From positions 11,595 through 75,594 of the forward strand of contig JBKQKK010000154.1 of assembly GCA_052147535.1 (NCBI GenBank): 64,000 nt of DNA, written 5' to 3'. The stretch comes from Solirubrobacteraceae bacterium (GTDB lineage Bacteria > Actinomycetota > Thermoleophilia > Solirubrobacterales > Solirubrobacteraceae). A program made the translations under genes and the position numbers. The notes under the pieces are model-generated. The model did no database searches and was not told where the DNA came from. It was given only the letters and a program-made list of their open reading frames with translations. Every line of letters starts with the position of its first letter. The stretch's first letter is position 1. Of this stretch, positions 40,921 to 46,303 are shown in pieces.

Positions 40921-41532
40921 GTGTTTCACGTCGAGTTGCGCCAGCGGCCACATGTGGCGCGTGCCTTCAATCTGCAGGAGCAGGAGGTCGCTGTCCGCTT
41001 TCTGAACCCGCTGCTGGCGGGCCGGCCGATCAACTACTCAGACCATGACTGGGATCCGAAGAAGACCAAGCTGACAGTGCTCGAGGGGCCCGAGCTGCGC
41101 CTCGAGGAGATCGGGATGGGGCGCGGCTGGGGCAACGCTCAGCGGTCGGCGATCGACGTCACGGAGCGCCTGATCGCGCGGGCGCGAGAGCTGACCAAGC
41201 GCGCCCCCGAGCTTGACCGGCTGAAGCAGCGGATCGTCGGCCGGATCGACGCCGGGCCGCTGCCGCTGAATCGAGTGGTGGTCTTGACAGCGGAGCTGAT
41301 GGCGGGGCGTCGCGCCAGCGATCGCCTGTCGCTGGCCGAGATCGCTGTCTGGGAGCTCCTACATGAGCGGGTGGTTGACCTGCTGGCGGGCGACGCGCTG
41401 CGCGACGAGCCGGTGGCCGAGCCTGATTGGCAGGCGCACCTGTTGAGTTGGGAGTCCTGGACGGCGGCTTGCGCTCAGGCGACCACGTCGTCGATCATTC
41501 TGGCGCGCTCGGCGTCAGACGCGAACAGGTAG
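40921..41532 (+). CDS. Hypothetical protein
   Basis: 203 aa, typical codon bias; TAGAGT upstream; 3' end overlaps the ArsA-like gene. Confidence 0.75.
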   Translation: MFHVELRQRPHVARAFNLQEQEVAVRFLNPLLAGRPINYSDHDWDPKKTKLTVLEGPELRLEEIGMGRGWGNAQRSAIDVTERLIARARELTKRAPELDRLKQRIVGRIDAGPLPLNRVVVLTAELMAGRRASDRLSLAEIAVWELLHERVVDLLAGDALRDEPVAEPDWQAHLLSWESWTAACAQATTSSIILARSASDANR

Positions 41533-42620
41533 CCGTGCATGCGCACCAGCCCTTCGACATCGTGGACATCGTCGTCGAAGTACGGCACCAGCAGTAGCGG
41601 CTCGTCGTTGATTTCGCCGGCAAGGCGCTCGACGTTGACCGCGTCGCGCTGCGCCAGCGCACGGTAGTCGTTGAAGTTATCGGCCACGCTGGCGGCCAGT
41701 TGCTCGCCGAGCAGCTGCGCCAGCTGCGCGCCCACTTCGGCTGGGTCTTCGTCACCGGCGAGATCGTGGTGAAAACGGTTGACGACGACTCCGGCGAACG
41801 GCAAGCCGGTCTGGAGCAGCGTGTGACGCAGCCAGATCGCCTCATCGATCGGCTCGCTCTGCGCCGAGGTGACAAGCACGAACGCTGTGTCCGGCGCTCG
41901 CAACAGGCGCTGGACCTCGGCTGCGCGAACGGTGAAGTCCTCGGTCATGTCGCCAAGCAGCGCAAAGAAGAGCGACAGATCGGTGATCATCTCCACGCCT
42001 GTGATCCGGCGCAGGGCGGGAAGCAGAGGGGCGACGCCAAGCTCGAGCAGCCGCATCCCGATTCCGGTTGGTCGCAGAAACGCCTTGAGCGCCCGCCCCT
42101 CGAGGAACGATGTCAGGCGGCGCGGTGCCTCGAAGAAGTCGATCGCGTTGCGCGACGGTGGCGTATCGAGCACGAGCAGGTCGAACTCGCTGTCGTGCGT
42201 GAGCTCGTACAGCTTCGAGACCGCCGTGAACTCCTGCGAGCCGGCCACCGCCGTCGAGAGGGACCGGTAGACGCGGTTGGCTTTGATTTCCTCAGCGCGC
42301 GCGGGCGTCGGTGCGATCTTGTCGATCAGCTCGTCGAAGGTCCGCTTCGGATCGAGCATCATCGCCCACAGCTCACCCTTGATTTCGAGTCCGAACGCCG
42401 CCAGGCGATCCGGGTCCACCAGGCGCGGCTCGTTCTCGAGCTCCTGCAGGCCGAGCGCGCCGGCCAGGCGTTTGGCCGGGTCGATCGTCACGACCGCCAC
42501 CCGCGCCCCGCGCGCGGCCATCCCGAGCGCGATCGCCGCCGACGTGGTCGTCTTGCCGACGCCGCCGGAGCCGGCGCAGACACAAACGCGCTTGCCGGCA
42601 AGCAGCTCGGCGGCGTTCAC
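41475..42620 (-). CDS. ArsA/Get3-family ATPase (Rv3680-like)
   Basis: CAGSGGVGKTT, VTIDPAKRLA, LWAMMLDPKRTFD, VLDTPPSRNA. Confidence 0.92.
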   Translation of the reverse strand: MNAAELLAGKRVCVCAGSGGVGKTTTSAAIALGMAARGARVAVVTIDPAKRLAGALGLQELENEPRLVDPDRLAAFGLEIKGELWAMMLDPKRTFDELIDKIAPTPARAEEIKANRVYRSLSTAVAGSQEFTAVSKLYELTHDSEFDLLVLDTPPSRNAIDFFEAPRRLTSFLEGRALKAFLRPTGIGMRLLELGVAPLLPALRRITGVEMITDLSLFFALLGDMTEDFTVRAAEVQRLLRAPDTAFVLVTSAQSEPIDEAIWLRHTLLQTGLPFAGVVVNRFHHDLAGDEDPAEVGAQLAQLLGEQLAASVADNFNDYRALAQRDAVNVERLAGEINDEPLLLVPYFDDDVHDVEGLVRMHGYLFASDAERARMIDDVVA

Positions 42621-43582
42621 GGCAATGCCTTCCCGAGTGCATCGGCGAGCCTCTGCAGCTCAGCCACACCGATGCTCGCCGAGAACACGAACGGCAGCGT
42701 TGCAACGATCGCTCCAAACGCCTGCTCGAGGCGCTCCTGCTGCTCAATCTGGGCGACGCAGCGCGCCTGTTGCGAGAGCGCCGCACGCAGGGCGGCTCGC
42801 GCGCGCGAGCCGTCGGCGGCCTGCAACGCCGCTTGCAGCGCCGGCACGTCCTGCGGCGCAAAGCGGTCTACGTAGCGAGCATTGAGGATCACCGCGTCGA
42901 TCGCGAGCTGCTGGCGAGCCAGCTCCTGTCCGAGCGCGAGCGTTTCGGTGACGGGCATTTCCTCGGGTGTGCTGACCGCGATCACACCGGTGAACGAGCG
43001 ATCGGCGATCGTGGCGGAGATCTTGCCCGCCTGGGCGGCGATCGGTCCGACTCTGGCGATCTCGGCGAACGTGCGCGGCGTCTGCAAAAAGCCGACGCCG
43101 TGACCGGTGGCCGGCGCATCGACGATCACGAAGTCATACGGCGCCCCCTCATGAGCGCGGCGCTCGAGCTGCGCCAGCTCCCAGATCTTGCCCATGCTGA
43201 GCAGCTCGCGCATGCCGGGCGTCGCCATCGCAAACGCGTGAAACACGCGGCTGGCGGAGAGGACATGGCCGAGCGCGCCGATCCGCAAGCGCAGGTACTC
43301 CTCCATCGCGTGCTGCGGATCGATCGAGATTGCGAACAGGCCGGGCGCGAGCTCCACCTCGTGAGAGATCTCGCCGTGTTGAGCGAAAGCTCGCTGTGCG
43401 CGTGCGTTGCCACCGAGCTCGGCGACGATCGTGCGCAGCCCCCTGCGCGCGGCGAGCAGACCGAGCGCCGTGGCCACCGTCGACTTCCCGACTCCTCCCT
43501 TGCCGGTGACGAACACCAGTCGACGCTGCAGCAGAGAAGACACCTCCCGCAACATACAGCCGTCCGCCGCCGAGGTGCTCAC
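42617..43582 (-). CDS. ArsA/Get3-family ATPase (Rv3679-like)
   Basis: VTGKGGVGKST, ATPGMRELL..GKI, IVDAPATGH, TPEEMPVTET; start uncertain. Confidence 0.9.
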   Translation of the reverse strand: MSTSAADGCMLREVSSLLQRRLVFVTGKGGVGKSTVATALGLLAARRGLRTIVAELGGNARAQRAFAQHGEISHEVELAPGLFAISIDPQHAMEEYLRLRIGALGHVLSASRVFHAFAMATPGMRELLSMGKIWELAQLERRAHEGAPYDFVIVDAPATGHGVGFLQTPRTFAEIARVGPIAAQAGKISATIADRSFTGVIAVSTPEEMPVTETLALGQELARQQLAIDAVILNARYVDRFAPQDVPALQAALQAADGSRARAALRAALSQQARCVAQIEQQERLEQAFGAIVATLPFVFSASIGVAELQRLADALGKALP

Positions 43583-43722: not shown

Positions 43723-44517
43723 ATGTTCTTCAACGCACCGGAGCCCTCAGTGACGGCCACCGCCAAGGTGATCGCGTTCGCCAACCAGAAGGGTGGCGTC
43801 GCAAAGACCACGACAACGCTCAACCTCGCCGTGGCGTTCGCGGAGGAGGGCCATCGCGTGCTGTGCGTGGACATGGACCCGCAGGGGAACCTGACGATGT
43901 CCCAGGGAATCGACCCGGACGGCCTCAAGAAGTCGATGTACGACGTGCTGGTGCACCACATCTCGATGCGCGAGGTGATCAGCAGGCGCGAGATCGACGT
44001 CGCCTGCGCCTCGATCGACCTTGCCGGCGCGGAGATCGCGATGTCGATGATGATCGGCCGTGAGCGGTCGCTGCAGAAGGCATTGGTGGAAGTGGAGCAC
44101 GATTATGACTTCGTGTTCATCGACACGCCGCCGAGCCTCGGGCTGCTGACGATCAACGCGCTCACCGCTTCGCACAAGGTGATCGTCCCCGTCCAGTGCG
44201 AATATCTGTCGATGCGAGGTCTCGTACAGTTGCAGAACACGCTTGCGATGATCCGGGAGAACCTCAACCCGACCGTCGACATCGAAGGGATCCTGCCGAC
44301 GATGGTTGATTCGCGCACTTTGCACGCCAAGGAGGCGATCGAGTTGCTCGAGGAGAACTTCGGCGACCGTGTGTTCGCCTCCCGAATCCGCAAGACCGTC
44401 CGTTTCGCCGAGGCGCCCGTCAAGGGCATGTCGGTACTCAAATACGATCCTGACGGTCTGGCAGCACACGCATACCGGCAGCTCGCGAAGGAGGTCCTCT
44501 CAAATGCCCAACGCTAA
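43723..44517 (+). CDS. ParA/Soj-family ATPase
   Basis: FANQKGGVAKTTT, DMDPQGNLT, IDTPPSLGLLT, VPVQCEY, TMVDSRT, IRKTVRFAEAP; start 43723 or 43750. Confidence 0.96.
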   Translation: MFFNAPEPSVTATAKVIAFANQKGGVAKTTTTLNLAVAFAEEGHRVLCVDMDPQGNLTMSQGIDPDGLKKSMYDVLVHHISMREVISRREIDVACASIDLAGAEIAMSMMIGRERSLQKALVEVEHDYDFVFIDTPPSLGLLTINALTASHKVIVPVQCEYLSMRGLVQLQNTLAMIRENLNPTVDIEGILPTMVDSRTLHAKEAIELLEENFGDRVFASRIRKTVRFAEAPVKGMSVLKYDPDGLAAHAYRQLAKEVLSNAQR

Positions 44518-46303
44518 ACGGGCGAGCATGCGCGAGGGGCCACTCGCGGCGCTGTTTCGCAAGACCGCCGAGGAGACGGGCCTGTCGGAGGGGCAGGTCC
44601 ACGAGCGCCAAGAGTTCGATGAGGGCGCTGCAGAGCACCGCGAGGCTCCGCAATCATCGTTTGAGTCTCCGGCAGGCGCCGGCCCGGCGGCGCCCGAGTC
44701 GGCTGCGTCCATGCCAGCAGTTGGCTCTGCGTCCGAAGTTGCGTCTGCGCCTTCTGCTCCCGAGGTTGCGTCTGCGCCTTCTGCGCCCGAAGTTGCGTCT
44801 GCGTCTGCGTCAGCGCGAGCGACGTCGGCGAGGCGTTCCTGGCCGGCGCTCACAGCCGACCCGAGCGGGGGTGACGTCCCTGCGCCCTCGCCGCAGGAGC
44901 GTCTGCGTCAGGCGTTCTCAGCGGACATCCCGCAGAACCTGATGGAGCTCGAGCGAGCCGCCGCAGCCCGCGAAGCGGCGCGCCGGCCAGAGCCGGTTGT
45001 GGCTCCCGAGCCGGTCACGGTTCCCGAGCCGGTCACGGCTCCCGAGCCGGTCACGGACGTCTACGCGCGCAGCGACCGTTCAGCTGACATGCACGCTGGG
45101 CCGCGGCCGGTGGGCAAGCCCGTGCTCCGGGTCGTCGGCGTCGGTGGCGCCGGTGTCAACGCGGTCAACCGCATGATCGAGGCGCAGGTCGACGGCGTCG
45201 AGTTCATCGCGATCAACACTGACCTCCAGTCGCTGCAGCAGTCGGCGGCCGCCGACACATTGCATATCGGCGACACGCTTACGCGCGGGCTGGGCTCCGG
45301 CTCGGATCCCGACGTGGGGCGCCAGGCAGCGCGGGAGGAATACGACCGCATCAAGGGAATGCTGCGCGGGTCCGACATGGTGTTCATCGCCGCCGGAGCT
45401 GGTGGCGGCACCGGCACCGGCGCGGCACCGGTCGTCGCGGAGATCGCCCGCGAGCTGGGAGCACTTACCGTCGGCATCGTCACGCGCCCGTTCCAGTTCG
45501 AGGGGACGCGGCGGCGCGTCCAGGCCGCTTCTGGGATCAACGCCCTGTCCGAGGTGGTCGACACGCTGATCGTCGTGCCCAACAATCGGCTGTTGAGCGT
45601 GCTCGATCGCAATACGTCGATGGTCGAAGCGTTCCGCGTCGCCGACGACGTCCTGCGACAGGGCGTCCAGGGGATCTGCGACCTGGTGACGTTGCCCGGC
45701 CTGATCAACCTGGACTTCGCCGATGTCCGGACGATCATGTCGGACGCCGGCAACGCATTGCTCGGGATCGGCATGGGCACCGGCGAGCGGCGCGCGATCG
45801 ACGCCGCCGAGAAGGCCGTGGCCTCGCCGCTGCTCGAGACGAGCATGGAGGGAGCGCGCTCGATCCTGCTGTCGATCACCGGCGGTTACGACCTATCCCT
45901 GTGGGAGGTCAATGAGGCGGCCAAAGCGGTCGCCGAGGCGGCTCATCCGGACGCGAACATCATCTTCGGAGCGATGGTTGATGAGAAGCTCGGCGACGAT
46001 CAGGTGTGGGTCACCGTGGTCGCCACGGGCTTCGGCGAGGCACGCCCGCGCCGGGGAGAGCGTGAGCGTGAGCGTGCCGGCAGGGCGGATCAACCAGGCG
46101 CGCCTGGGCGGCGCCGAGCGGAGTCGACGGAGCGAGAGCGTTCGCGGCAGAAAATCGCGACAGAGCGGCCGCGACCGGCGGAGCGCCAGTCAGAAAGCTG
46201 GCGGCCGCTGCGCGAGCCGACCGGTGAGCCGCGCGTCAGGCGTACACGCGAACGTTCATCCTCCGCGGAGCTTGACGTCCCCGAATTCATCCCCCGTCGC
46301 TGA
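44504..46303 (+). CDS. ftsZ: FtsZ with a ~200-aa N-terminal extension
   Basis: AAGGAGG RBS inside parA; core GVGGAGVNAV, GGGTGTG, PFQFEG, T7 loop INLDFAD; C-terminal peptide LDVPEFIPRR. Confidence 0.95.
   Translation: MPNAKRASMREGPLAALFRKTAEETGLSEGQVHERQEFDEGAAEHREAPQSSFESPAGAGPAAPESAASMPAVGSASEVASAPSAPEVASAPSAPEVASASASARATSARRSWPALTADPSGGDVPAPSPQERLRQAFSADIPQNLMELERAAAAREAARRPEPVVAPEPVTVPEPVTAPEPVTDVYARSDRSADMHAGPRPVGKPVLRVVGVGGAGVNAVNRMIEAQVDGVEFIAINTDLQSLQQSAAADTLHIGDTLTRGLGSGSDPDVGRQAAREEYDRIKGMLRGSDMVFIAAGAGGGTGTGAAPVVAEIARELGALTVGIVTRPFQFEGTRRRVQAASGINALSEVVDTLIVVPNNRLLSVLDRNTSMVEAFRVADDVLRQGVQGICDLVTLPGLINLDFADVRTIMSDAGNALLGIGMGTGERRAIDAAEKAVASPLLETSMEGARSILLSITGGYDLSLWEVNEAAKAVAEAAHPDANIIFGAMVDEKLGDDQVWVTVVATGFGEARPRRGERERERAGRADQPGAPGRRRAESTERERSRQKIATERPRPAERQSESWRPLREPTGEPRVRRTRERSSSAELDVPEFIPRR
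44728..44810 (+). repeat. 27-bp in-frame tandem repeat in the FtsZ N-terminal linker
   Basis: Encodes ASEVASAP-SAPEVASAP-SAPEVASAS. Confidence 0.85.
44986..45058 (+). repeat. 18-bp in-frame tandem repeat in the FtsZ N-terminal linker
   Basis: Encodes PEPVVA-PEPVTV-PEPVTA-PEPVTD. Confidence 0.85.

Follow-up and report, generated by a model that had tools for sequence, protein, structure and literature searches.

The window analyzed here, a 64,000-nucleotide stretch of contig JBKQKK010000154.1 (positions 11,595 to 75,594, forward strand; GenBank assembly GCA_052147535.1) from a Solirubrobacteraceae bacterium of the class Thermoleophilia, carries a two-gene operon, parA2-ftsZ2, that is ancient and occurs throughout this class. 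The operon joins a ParA-type ATPase that is not Soj with a second FtsZ, whose GTPase core is preceded by an arm tipped by the peptide KRASMREGPLAALFRKT. A similar peptide begins a family of small hypothetical proteins encoded directly behind related ATPases in other Actinomycetota. From these sequence relations we propose, with about as much confidence as doubt, that the tip may be a handle for ParA2 and that ParA2 would act directly on FtsZ2 filaments.

Organization of the parA2-ftsZ2 operon

The features of the operon are listed below by their position in the window; all lie on the + strand.

43750..44517, +, parA2, encoding a 255-aa non-Soj ParA-type ATPase with Pfam AAA_31, CbiA, MipZ and ParA matches
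44488..44494, +, Shine-Dalgarno sequence AAGGAGG of ftsZ2, within the coding sequence of parA2 and 9 nt upstream of the ATG
44504..44517, +, overlap of the ftsZ2 start (ATG 44504) with the parA2 stop (TAA 44515-44517), 14 nt
44504..46303, +, ftsZ2, encoding a 599-aa FtsZ paralogue composed of tip, disordered arm, core, C-terminal linker and C-terminal peptide
44504..44575, +, N-terminal tip, aa 1-24, MPNAKRASMREGPLAALFRKTAEE, putative ParA2 handle
44726..44803, +, 27-nt tandem repeat, in frame (SAPSAPEVA x2.9), in the disordered arm
44885..44941, +, second conserved island PSPQERLRQAFSADIPQNL, aa 128-146, predicted helix
44990..45056, +, 18-nt tandem repeat, in frame (PEPVTx x3.7), in the arm
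45116..46048, +, FtsZ core, aa 205-515; both GGGTGTG and NLDFAD of the T7 loop are intact
46268..46300, +, C-terminal peptide ELDVPEFIPRR, an FtsZ partner-docking motif, nearly invariant in relatives

The initial annotation of this DNA had placed the start of parA2 at the in-frame ATG 43723. GTG 43750 is, however, the most likely start, because a GGAG (43740-43743) lies 6 nt upstream of it and the relatives are called at 254-255 aa. The other structural claims about the junction proved accurate: ftsZ2 follows parA2 directly with no adjacent parB, its start overlaps the end of parA2 by 14 nt, and its ribosome-binding site lies within the upstream gene. The identical 14-nt overlap was found in 73 of 82 related loci, an 11-nt overlap in two and a 9-nt spacer in one, the remaining loci being contig ends or frameshifted long-read assemblies; an (A/C/G)(A/G)GGAGG element was present in 81 of the 82. 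The overlap of parA with ftsZ2 was seen in other Thermoleophilia families as well, and an arrangement of this kind evidently couples the translation of the two genes. A 434-nt wetland metatranscriptome contig covers positions 44340-44773 with 3 mismatches, spanning the junction and running into the arm. It is consistent with co-transcription of both genes, and carry-over of DNA could also explain it. Other RNA contigs cover parts of parA2 and ftsZ2; the wetland RNA contigs indicate that a close relative is therefore transcriptionally active in wetland soil. A promoter and terminator scan of the operon returned nothing useful.

FtsZ2 is a complete FtsZ, as first read from its GGGTGTG, NLDFAD and LDVPEFIPRR motifs. 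It scores 416 bits with the ftsZ model TIGR00065 (cut-off 295), which places it within the FtsZ family, and it contains the Pfam Tubulin/FtsZ GTPase domain (PF00091, aa 209-367, 157.7 bits) and FtsZ_C (PF12327, aa 416-510, 106.8 bits). Both GGGTGTG and NLDFAD are invariant in 40 relatives. In an AlphaFold2 model built from a 40-sequence alignment, the GTPase domain reached a predicted local distance difference test score (pLDDT) of 80-94, while the arm was disordered, with pLDDT below 50 and short helices at aa 15-18 (low confidence), 130-139, 146-159 and 192-197. The full-length model gave no confident docking of the tip on the core. In the C-terminal linker, an EPxGEPRV block (aa 571-580, 46214-46243) is conserved in Solirubrobacterales relatives.

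The N-terminal extension of approximately 200 residues had also been described correctly; it consists of the basic tip MPNAKRASMREGPLAALFRKT, a Pro/Ala/Glu-rich arm with the tandem repeats listed above, and the island PSPQERLRQAFSADIP. In relatives the arm has the same P/A/E-rich composition and is 100-211 aa long, shrinking to ~20-60 residues in some other families. A survey of both N-terminal islands across Thermoleophilia had been suggested. The tip is present class-wide together with the gene pair; the second island is conserved in 69 aligned Solirubrobacterales-type sequences and has no clear counterpart, as judged by eye, in the short arms of other families.

The tip follows the motif [KR]R.S[ML](R/K)(D/E)G(P)L..LF(R/K).T over 17-20 residues. 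In 83 loci, 14 of the 18 tip residues never change, each being encoded by 2-5 synonymous codons, and the tip is evidently under purifying selection, beyond what chance would produce. Tip, core and C-terminal peptide stand in one frame in 68 of the 83 sequences, and changes in arm length come as in-frame repeats. We conclude from this pattern that translation of FtsZ includes the N-terminal arm, because invariant tip residues vary in their synonymous codons, the frame is kept and insertions and deletions are in-frame repeats. The extension thus belongs to the FtsZ that begins at the conserved ATG with its Shine-Dalgarno sequence, as was initially proposed, and not to a region upstream of a start near the core.

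Canonical FtsZ, Soj and ParB in the same genome

A search of this genome for a second, dcw-linked ftsZ had been suggested, and such a gene was found. A canonical 364-aa ftsZ on contig C72 ends a murE-murF-ftsW-murG-murC-murB-ftsQ string, which constitutes the division and cell wall (dcw) cluster; the ftsZ of the window is therefore a paralogue and not a relocated sole ftsZ. The core of FtsZ2 shares 63% identity with the dcw-encoded FtsZ (FtsZ1). The possibility that the window gene is itself the primary, dcw-linked FtsZ was rejected, as the C72 cluster ends with a different ftsZ and the window gene falls in a separate paralogue clade. The genome also contains one SepF and a canonical parA-parB pair (contig C155), whose ParB begins AERQKGIGRGLAAIL. 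In addition, a second, plasmid-like parA-parB pair is located on a 3-kb contig (C402:1-2000), its ParB being without the GLGRGL tip, and three further ParA-like open reading frames (ORFs) are present in the assembly (C103:5132-5959, C176:1611-2432 and C395:19570-20331).

The product of parA2 has the deviant Walker A motif KGGVAKT that characterizes the ParA/Soj type. Its Pfam scores are 199 bits for AAA_31, 99 bits for CbiA and 47.9 bits for MipZ (a partial match, aa 37-191), and solved Soj structures match it at E values of 1e-43 to 1e-50. The best solved relatives are the 273-aa chains 5if9 and 4pfs (E 2e-61), which were deposited under the name 'cobyrinic acid a,c-diamide synthase'. Compared with the Soj of its own genome, the window ParA is 43% identical (43-44%), and the claim that it keeps arginines at Soj positions was confirmed by this alignment, in which TMVDSRT pairs with TMYDART and RKTVRFAEAP with PRNVRISEAP. 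The two aligned arginines are at what we take to be the positions that Soj uses for non-specific DNA binding.

Two other identities for the ATPase were considered and rejected. It is not MinD, since it scores 51.5 bits with TIGR01968 against a cut-off of 212.9 and its C-terminus (...AYRQLAKEVLSNAQR) is without an amphipathic membrane-targeting helix; in its own genome, no MinD-like ORF was recognizable among ten Walker A regular-expression matches, which is a weak test. Nor is it the Soj of a parAB pair, since the next gene is ftsZ2 and not parB, and the protein falls outside the ParB-linked clade (96/95).

Upstream of parA2 and divergent from it, a pair of neighboring genes on the - strand (41475-43582 of the window) encodes ArsA/GET3-like ATPases of 381 and 321 aa. 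The order ArsA, ArsA | parA2, ftsZ2, gamma-glutamyltranspeptidase, BacA/UppP recurs in distant relatives (L008, L009).

The gene pair is class-wide and arose once

With the N-terminal 205 residues of FtsZ2 as a query, over 860 FtsZ sequences 470-700 aa in length were matched, all of them with the nearly invariant tip and the C-terminal peptide. In a scan with one genome per species, at least 538 genomes had a match, and the 80 of these that were listed are all Solirubrobacterales-type or unclassified actinobacterial metagenome-assembled genomes of the class Thermoleophilia. Exactly two FtsZ were found in 191 of 201 Thermoleophilia genomes. All 20 loci taken from the seven other GTDB families examined in the class carry parA and then ftsZ2 with a recognizable tip (KRASMREGPLAELFRKT, SMREGPLADLFRRT, RASMKEGALANLFQ, KRHSMRDGPLAQLFKAT, KRASMRDGLNELFRRT and KRSSLRDSGLNSLFRAT). 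In Actinomycetota outside Thermoleophilia one FtsZ is the rule, and the few double sets are tandem copies that are not linked to parA (f39, f60, f67, G413). Such tandem ftsZ copies, ~1.3-1.5 kb apart, occur in family f39 (7/7 genomes) and a few others (for example G368:C24:38028-39644, G322:C1:88569-90231, G379:C33, G419:C25 and G413:C180), and represent an independent route to two FtsZ.

Phylogenetic trees agree with this distribution. FtsZ2 is monophyletic (98/93) with a branching order that tracks the families, and FtsZ1 groups with other actinobacterial FtsZ; branches are longer in FtsZ2 than in FtsZ1, indicating faster evolution. The FtsZ2-linked ParA proteins likewise form one clade (100/97), outside the Soj/ParB-linked clade. 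As both groups are monophyletic, the pair has a single origin, no later than the base of Thermoleophilia. In the ParA tree, the FtsZ2-linked clade belongs to a joint non-Soj clade (93/71) with ParA2 proteins that are linked to small proteins, and the window ParA is 46-52% identical to ParA2-type homologues from outside the class. In this tree, the window ParA thus appears to belong to a non-Soj actinobacterial group that includes the scpAB-linked ParA2 type (SCO1772/PldP/Rv1708). A third actinobacterial ParA group is also monophyletic (100/99; L141, L144, L146, L150, L159); the small protein encoded behind it has four cysteines in a zinc-ribbon-like motif (CTVECSSCREETRV...CPSCG).

A related tip on small proteins encoded behind ParA2

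Outside the class, a small gene lies directly 3' of the genes for the closest ParA homologues, and its start usually overlaps their stop; the copies that were examined encode 117-192 aa. It was found in seven sampled GTDB families, Streptomyces included. In Streptomyces it stands between parA2 and scpA, and scpB comes next. The second ParA of Streptomyces is SCO1772/ParA2, which is related to PldP and Rv1708 (PMC4255298, PMC10482377). One locus of the Streptomyces type (L152, genome G251) is arranged as follows.

L152:1099-2448, -, scpA; the small gene with the tip MSRRVSLPGADELFRTT is directly 3' of parA2
L152:476-1198, -, scpB

Further loci with the small gene are L140, L143, L147, L149, L156, L157, L188-L192 and L196. 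The encoded protein starts with (V/M)xRRASLPGADELFRxT and continues with a variable linker and a conserved C-terminal domain of ~65 residues (HDEKITVY..EL..LE.ARL.LR..DRGRIVR). Among the best 120 of at least 8000 small-protein clusters, all those named by their source are called 'hypothetical protein', and searches for a Pfam domain or a sequence relative in the PDB found none. From the pattern KITVY..EL..LE.ARL.LR, one could guess at a ribbon-helix-helix fold.

We compared the two tip families in several ways. The FtsZ2-tip profile, built from Thermoleophilia alone, was aligned with the small-protein tips using hhalign (Prob 89.8, P 1.8e-6, 20 columns), and the alignment pairs kRaSMreGpLa.LFR.T with rRASLPG--AdELFR.T. 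The score of 23.4 compares with 7.1 +/- 2.0 (maximum 15.1) in column shuffles and was reached by none of 300. A hidden Markov model (HMM) of the FtsZ2 tip gave 4-14 bits on twelve small-protein N-termini, corresponding to empirical p values of 2.7e-5 to 2e-3 against a background of 110,454 candidate N-termini of the window's own genome, few of which besides the FtsZ2 tip score that high. In the opposite direction, an HMM of the small-protein tip found one strong match (E <= 5e-11) in each of 18 out of 56 genomes from outside the class, and every one of these 18 matches adjoins the 3' end of a ParA2-type gene; the HMM matched in 0 of 5 Thermoleophilia genomes. FtsZ2 itself carries the pattern shared by the two families ([KR]R.S[LM]...(E/x)LFR.T), and its gene comes immediately after one of ParA2 type. 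This suggests that the tag goes with the ParA2 ATPase while the protein body differs, and it makes the small protein a candidate partner for the actinobacterial ParA2, which has been regarded as an 'orphan'.

The tip is at best marginally similar to ParB

The initial annotation had regarded the N-terminal peptide of FtsZ2 as ParB-like, and this claim did not survive comparison with the ParB consensus (K/R)xGLG(R/K)GLxAL(I/L). On eight ParB N-termini, seven of which were scored, the FtsZ2-tip HMM gave -0.8 to -2.2 bits (p 0.14-0.5), that is, noise. Alignment with 16 ParB tips by hhalign yielded Prob 17.6 and P 1.4e-3, with a score of 13-14 that falls within the top ~1% of column shuffles and hence within their tail. 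Judged by these sequences, any ParB likeness of the tip is at best marginal.

A proposed handle for ParA2

These findings led us to hypothesize that the tip is a handle by which partners are recognized by the ParA2 family, and that in an ancestor of Thermoleophilia the body of the partner was replaced by a copy of FtsZ. Nucleoid-bound ATP-ParA2 dimers would bind the tips, which would probably stimulate the ATPase, and an FtsZ2 filament would show its tips multivalently on flexible tethers. In this way the nucleoid could determine where FtsZ2 assemblies are placed or from where they are excluded. FtsZ2 could moreover use its core and C-terminal peptide to co-assemble with FtsZ1 or recruit SepF, and so couple division to the ParA2 pattern. 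We consider it an evenly balanced matter whether the tip serves ParA2 in this way and ParA2 acts directly on FtsZ2 filaments. A wider version is more tentative, and we hold it with more doubt than belief: parA2-ftsZ2 might be a minimal two-protein, nucleoid-referenced system, in which the FtsZ filament would be both cargo and multivalent activator of ParA, and it might belong to a ParA2 partner family marked by the RRASLPGADELFR tip (a small protein in Streptomyces, FtsZ2 in Thermoleophilia), whose members swap their body and keep a portable handle.

Several observations weigh against this hypothesis. With regard to the tip, the link between its two families rests on about 20 aligned columns, and genome-wide searches do not recover it. 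When 250 Actinomycetota genomes, and 20 chosen genomes at E<=10, were searched with the FtsZ2-tip HMM, the small-protein tips were at noise, except in G249 (11 bits). The small-protein-tip HMM, run on the six-frame translation of the window's own genome, misses FtsZ2, because that profile is over-specific for RRASLPG. As the genome-wide rank test fails, the link is carried by the position-restricted and the profile-profile tests. The tip could also form a short amphipathic helix, and by hydrophobic moment it is indistinguishable from known membrane-targeting sequences. With regard to the partner, AlphaFold2 modeled the small protein with low confidence (20 Streptomyces sequences, pLDDT 49), and its role as a ParA adaptor is a candidate one. 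With regard to descent, the FtsZ2-linked ParA branches as sister to the ParA proteins linked to zinc-ribbon genes (95/90, with a warning about long branches) and does not lie inside the small-protein-linked clade; the replacement of the partner body is one evolutionary event, and the co-occurrence of parA2 and ftsZ2 within Thermoleophilia is a single inherited one. Finally, a normal dcw FtsZ is present, so FtsZ2 need not have a role in placing the main ring.

The first alternative is that the tip contacts not ParA2 but the membrane, as an amphipathic helix by which FtsZ2 would anchor itself, or else DNA or a further protein, for instance SMC-ScpAB, the coupling of the genes then reflecting co-expression in a common process. 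We regard this as unlikely, though as the most probable of the alternatives. It is favored by the short helix modeled at aa 15-18, by a hydrophobic moment in the range of the membrane-targeting sequences of MinD and FtsA, and by the case of Atribacter, whose second FtsZ has been proposed to carry an amphipathic helix at its N-terminus (PMC7736352). For a third factor speaks the slot in Streptomyces, which adjoins scpAB, together with the report that Rv1708 binds ScpA (PMC10482377). However, the invariant positions of the tip (R6, S8, R10, E11, G12 and T21) are largely polar or small residues, a pattern of protein binding, whereas a lipid-binding helix tolerates substitution. The small-protein motif, moreover, is poor in hydrophobic residues and has two adjacent acidic ones (ADELF), FtsZ2 already possesses the usual C-terminal peptide for docking an anchor, and the motif was found directly behind ParA2-type genes only (18/18).

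According to a second alternative, ParA2 and FtsZ2 do interact, but in the service of chromosome organization, segregation or another task outside division, with FtsZ2 filaments in place of a DNA-bound adaptor. The string parA2-small protein-scpA-scpB that occupies this slot elsewhere in Actinomycetota would fit such a task, as would the faster evolution of FtsZ2 compared with FtsZ1 and the presence of a complete dcw ftsZ and a SepF. On the other hand, the divisome-docking C-terminal peptide is almost invariant and the core is 63% identical to that of FtsZ1, and division phenotypes are reported for PldP and Rv1708 (PMC4255298, PMC10482377, 10.1101/2025.07.02.662783). We give this alternative a rather small probability.

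Slightly less probable again is pure inheritance, in which an ancient duplication put ftsZ2 behind parA2 without any direct contact of the products, and the likeness of the tips is convergence or chance. The single origin for the whole class and the failure of genome-wide HMM searches to link the tip families agree with it. But the 14-nt overlap, the Shine-Dalgarno sequence and the near-invariant tip persist in 12 GTDB families, in which the linker ranges from ~20 to >200 aa; the tip likeness beats 300 of 300 shuffles and occurs at a homologous position behind a related ATPase; and the small protein is lacking in the five Thermoleophilia genomes searched, as replacement predicts. It is highly improbable that the arm is no part of FtsZ and that its frame is a high-G+C artefact upstream of a start near the core: long spurious open frames are common in 70% G+C DNA and one database cluster (P0007) was called from an internal start, but the ATG is conserved with a strong Shine-Dalgarno sequence, the tip is under purifying selection and the frame is kept class-wide through variable linkers and in-frame repeats.

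How a division ring is placed without Min or nucleoid occlusion is an open question, especially in Actinomycetota, which also have a second ParA without a known partner. If the tip is indeed a ParA2 handle, an FtsZ would be a direct client of a ParA, and no simpler connection of tubulin-like filaments to the nucleoid would so far be known; the 'orphan' second ParA of Actinomycetota (ParA2/PldP type) would be no orphan. The small hypothetical protein of Streptomyces would then be a concrete candidate for the missing ParA2 partner in a genetically tractable species, and the tip an example of a portable short motif that moves between unrelated protein bodies within one operon slot.

Comparison with known systems

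The literature that we searched on Thermoleophilia FtsZ, on ParH/SCO1771 and on parA-ftsZ coupling contained no description of a parA2-ftsZ2 module. New in the present work are the small-protein tip outside the class, the controlled negative test of ParB likeness and the trees.

Among FtsZ proteins, the nearest precedent is Atribacter laminatus, which has two FtsZ, one conventional and one N-terminally extended; such pairs occur in 9 of 6751 type strains (PMC7736352). Its extension, however, is a short one, interpreted as a membrane helix, and neither ParA coupling nor a conserved tag is described for it (PMC7736352).

Among ParA-type ATPases, PldP of C. glutamicum (Cg1610), Rv1708, MSMEG_3743 and SCO1772 are, like the window ParA, non-Soj proteins grouped against the Soj/ParB-linked clade, and members of this PldP/Rv1708/ParA2 family have division phenotypes (PMC4255298, PMC10482377, 10.1101/2025.07.02.662783). 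PldP has been described as an orphan (10.1101/2025.07.02.662783) and Rv1708 is directly followed by scpA, whereas parA2 of the window is coupled to ftsZ2 and its product falls in a clade that is sister to another ParA group, not nested among the ParA2 proteins. MipZ of Caulobacter is a ParA-like ATPase that acts directly on FtsZ, as we propose for ParA2, but it binds canonical FtsZ without a tag and is itself positioned by ParB.

The partner can be compared with those of three systems. As in ParABS, the N-terminus of the partner shows a basic stretch and then G-x-L-x-A-L-(I/L/F), and the partner gene occupies the slot 3' of parA; unlike ParABS, the window has neither a ParB domain nor parS, the likeness is not significant, and the true parAB pair is on C155. 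In ParF-ParG of TP228 (PMC7308502), a small partner acts on the ATPase with a flexible N-terminal tail, a layout resembling that of the small proteins behind parA2, whereas the body of the partner in the window is FtsZ. The closest parallel in design is PomXYZ of Myxococcus xanthus. The non-homologous partners of ParA/MinD ATPases activate them via short basic N-terminal peptides, and in PomX a 22-residue basic N-terminal peptide alone activates PomZ (PMC7993993). PomXYZ, which serves to place the division site, has a nucleoid-bound ParA-type ATPase and a partner built from a conserved peptide, an Ala/Pro-rich disordered region and a filament-forming body, and the sequences of parA2-ftsZ2 predict a like set of features. 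The two differ in that PomX is a scaffold of the coiled-coil type whose recruitment of FtsZ is indirect, and that there is a second activator, PomY, whereas in Thermoleophilia the body, which has no sequence relation to PomX, is an FtsZ paralogue.

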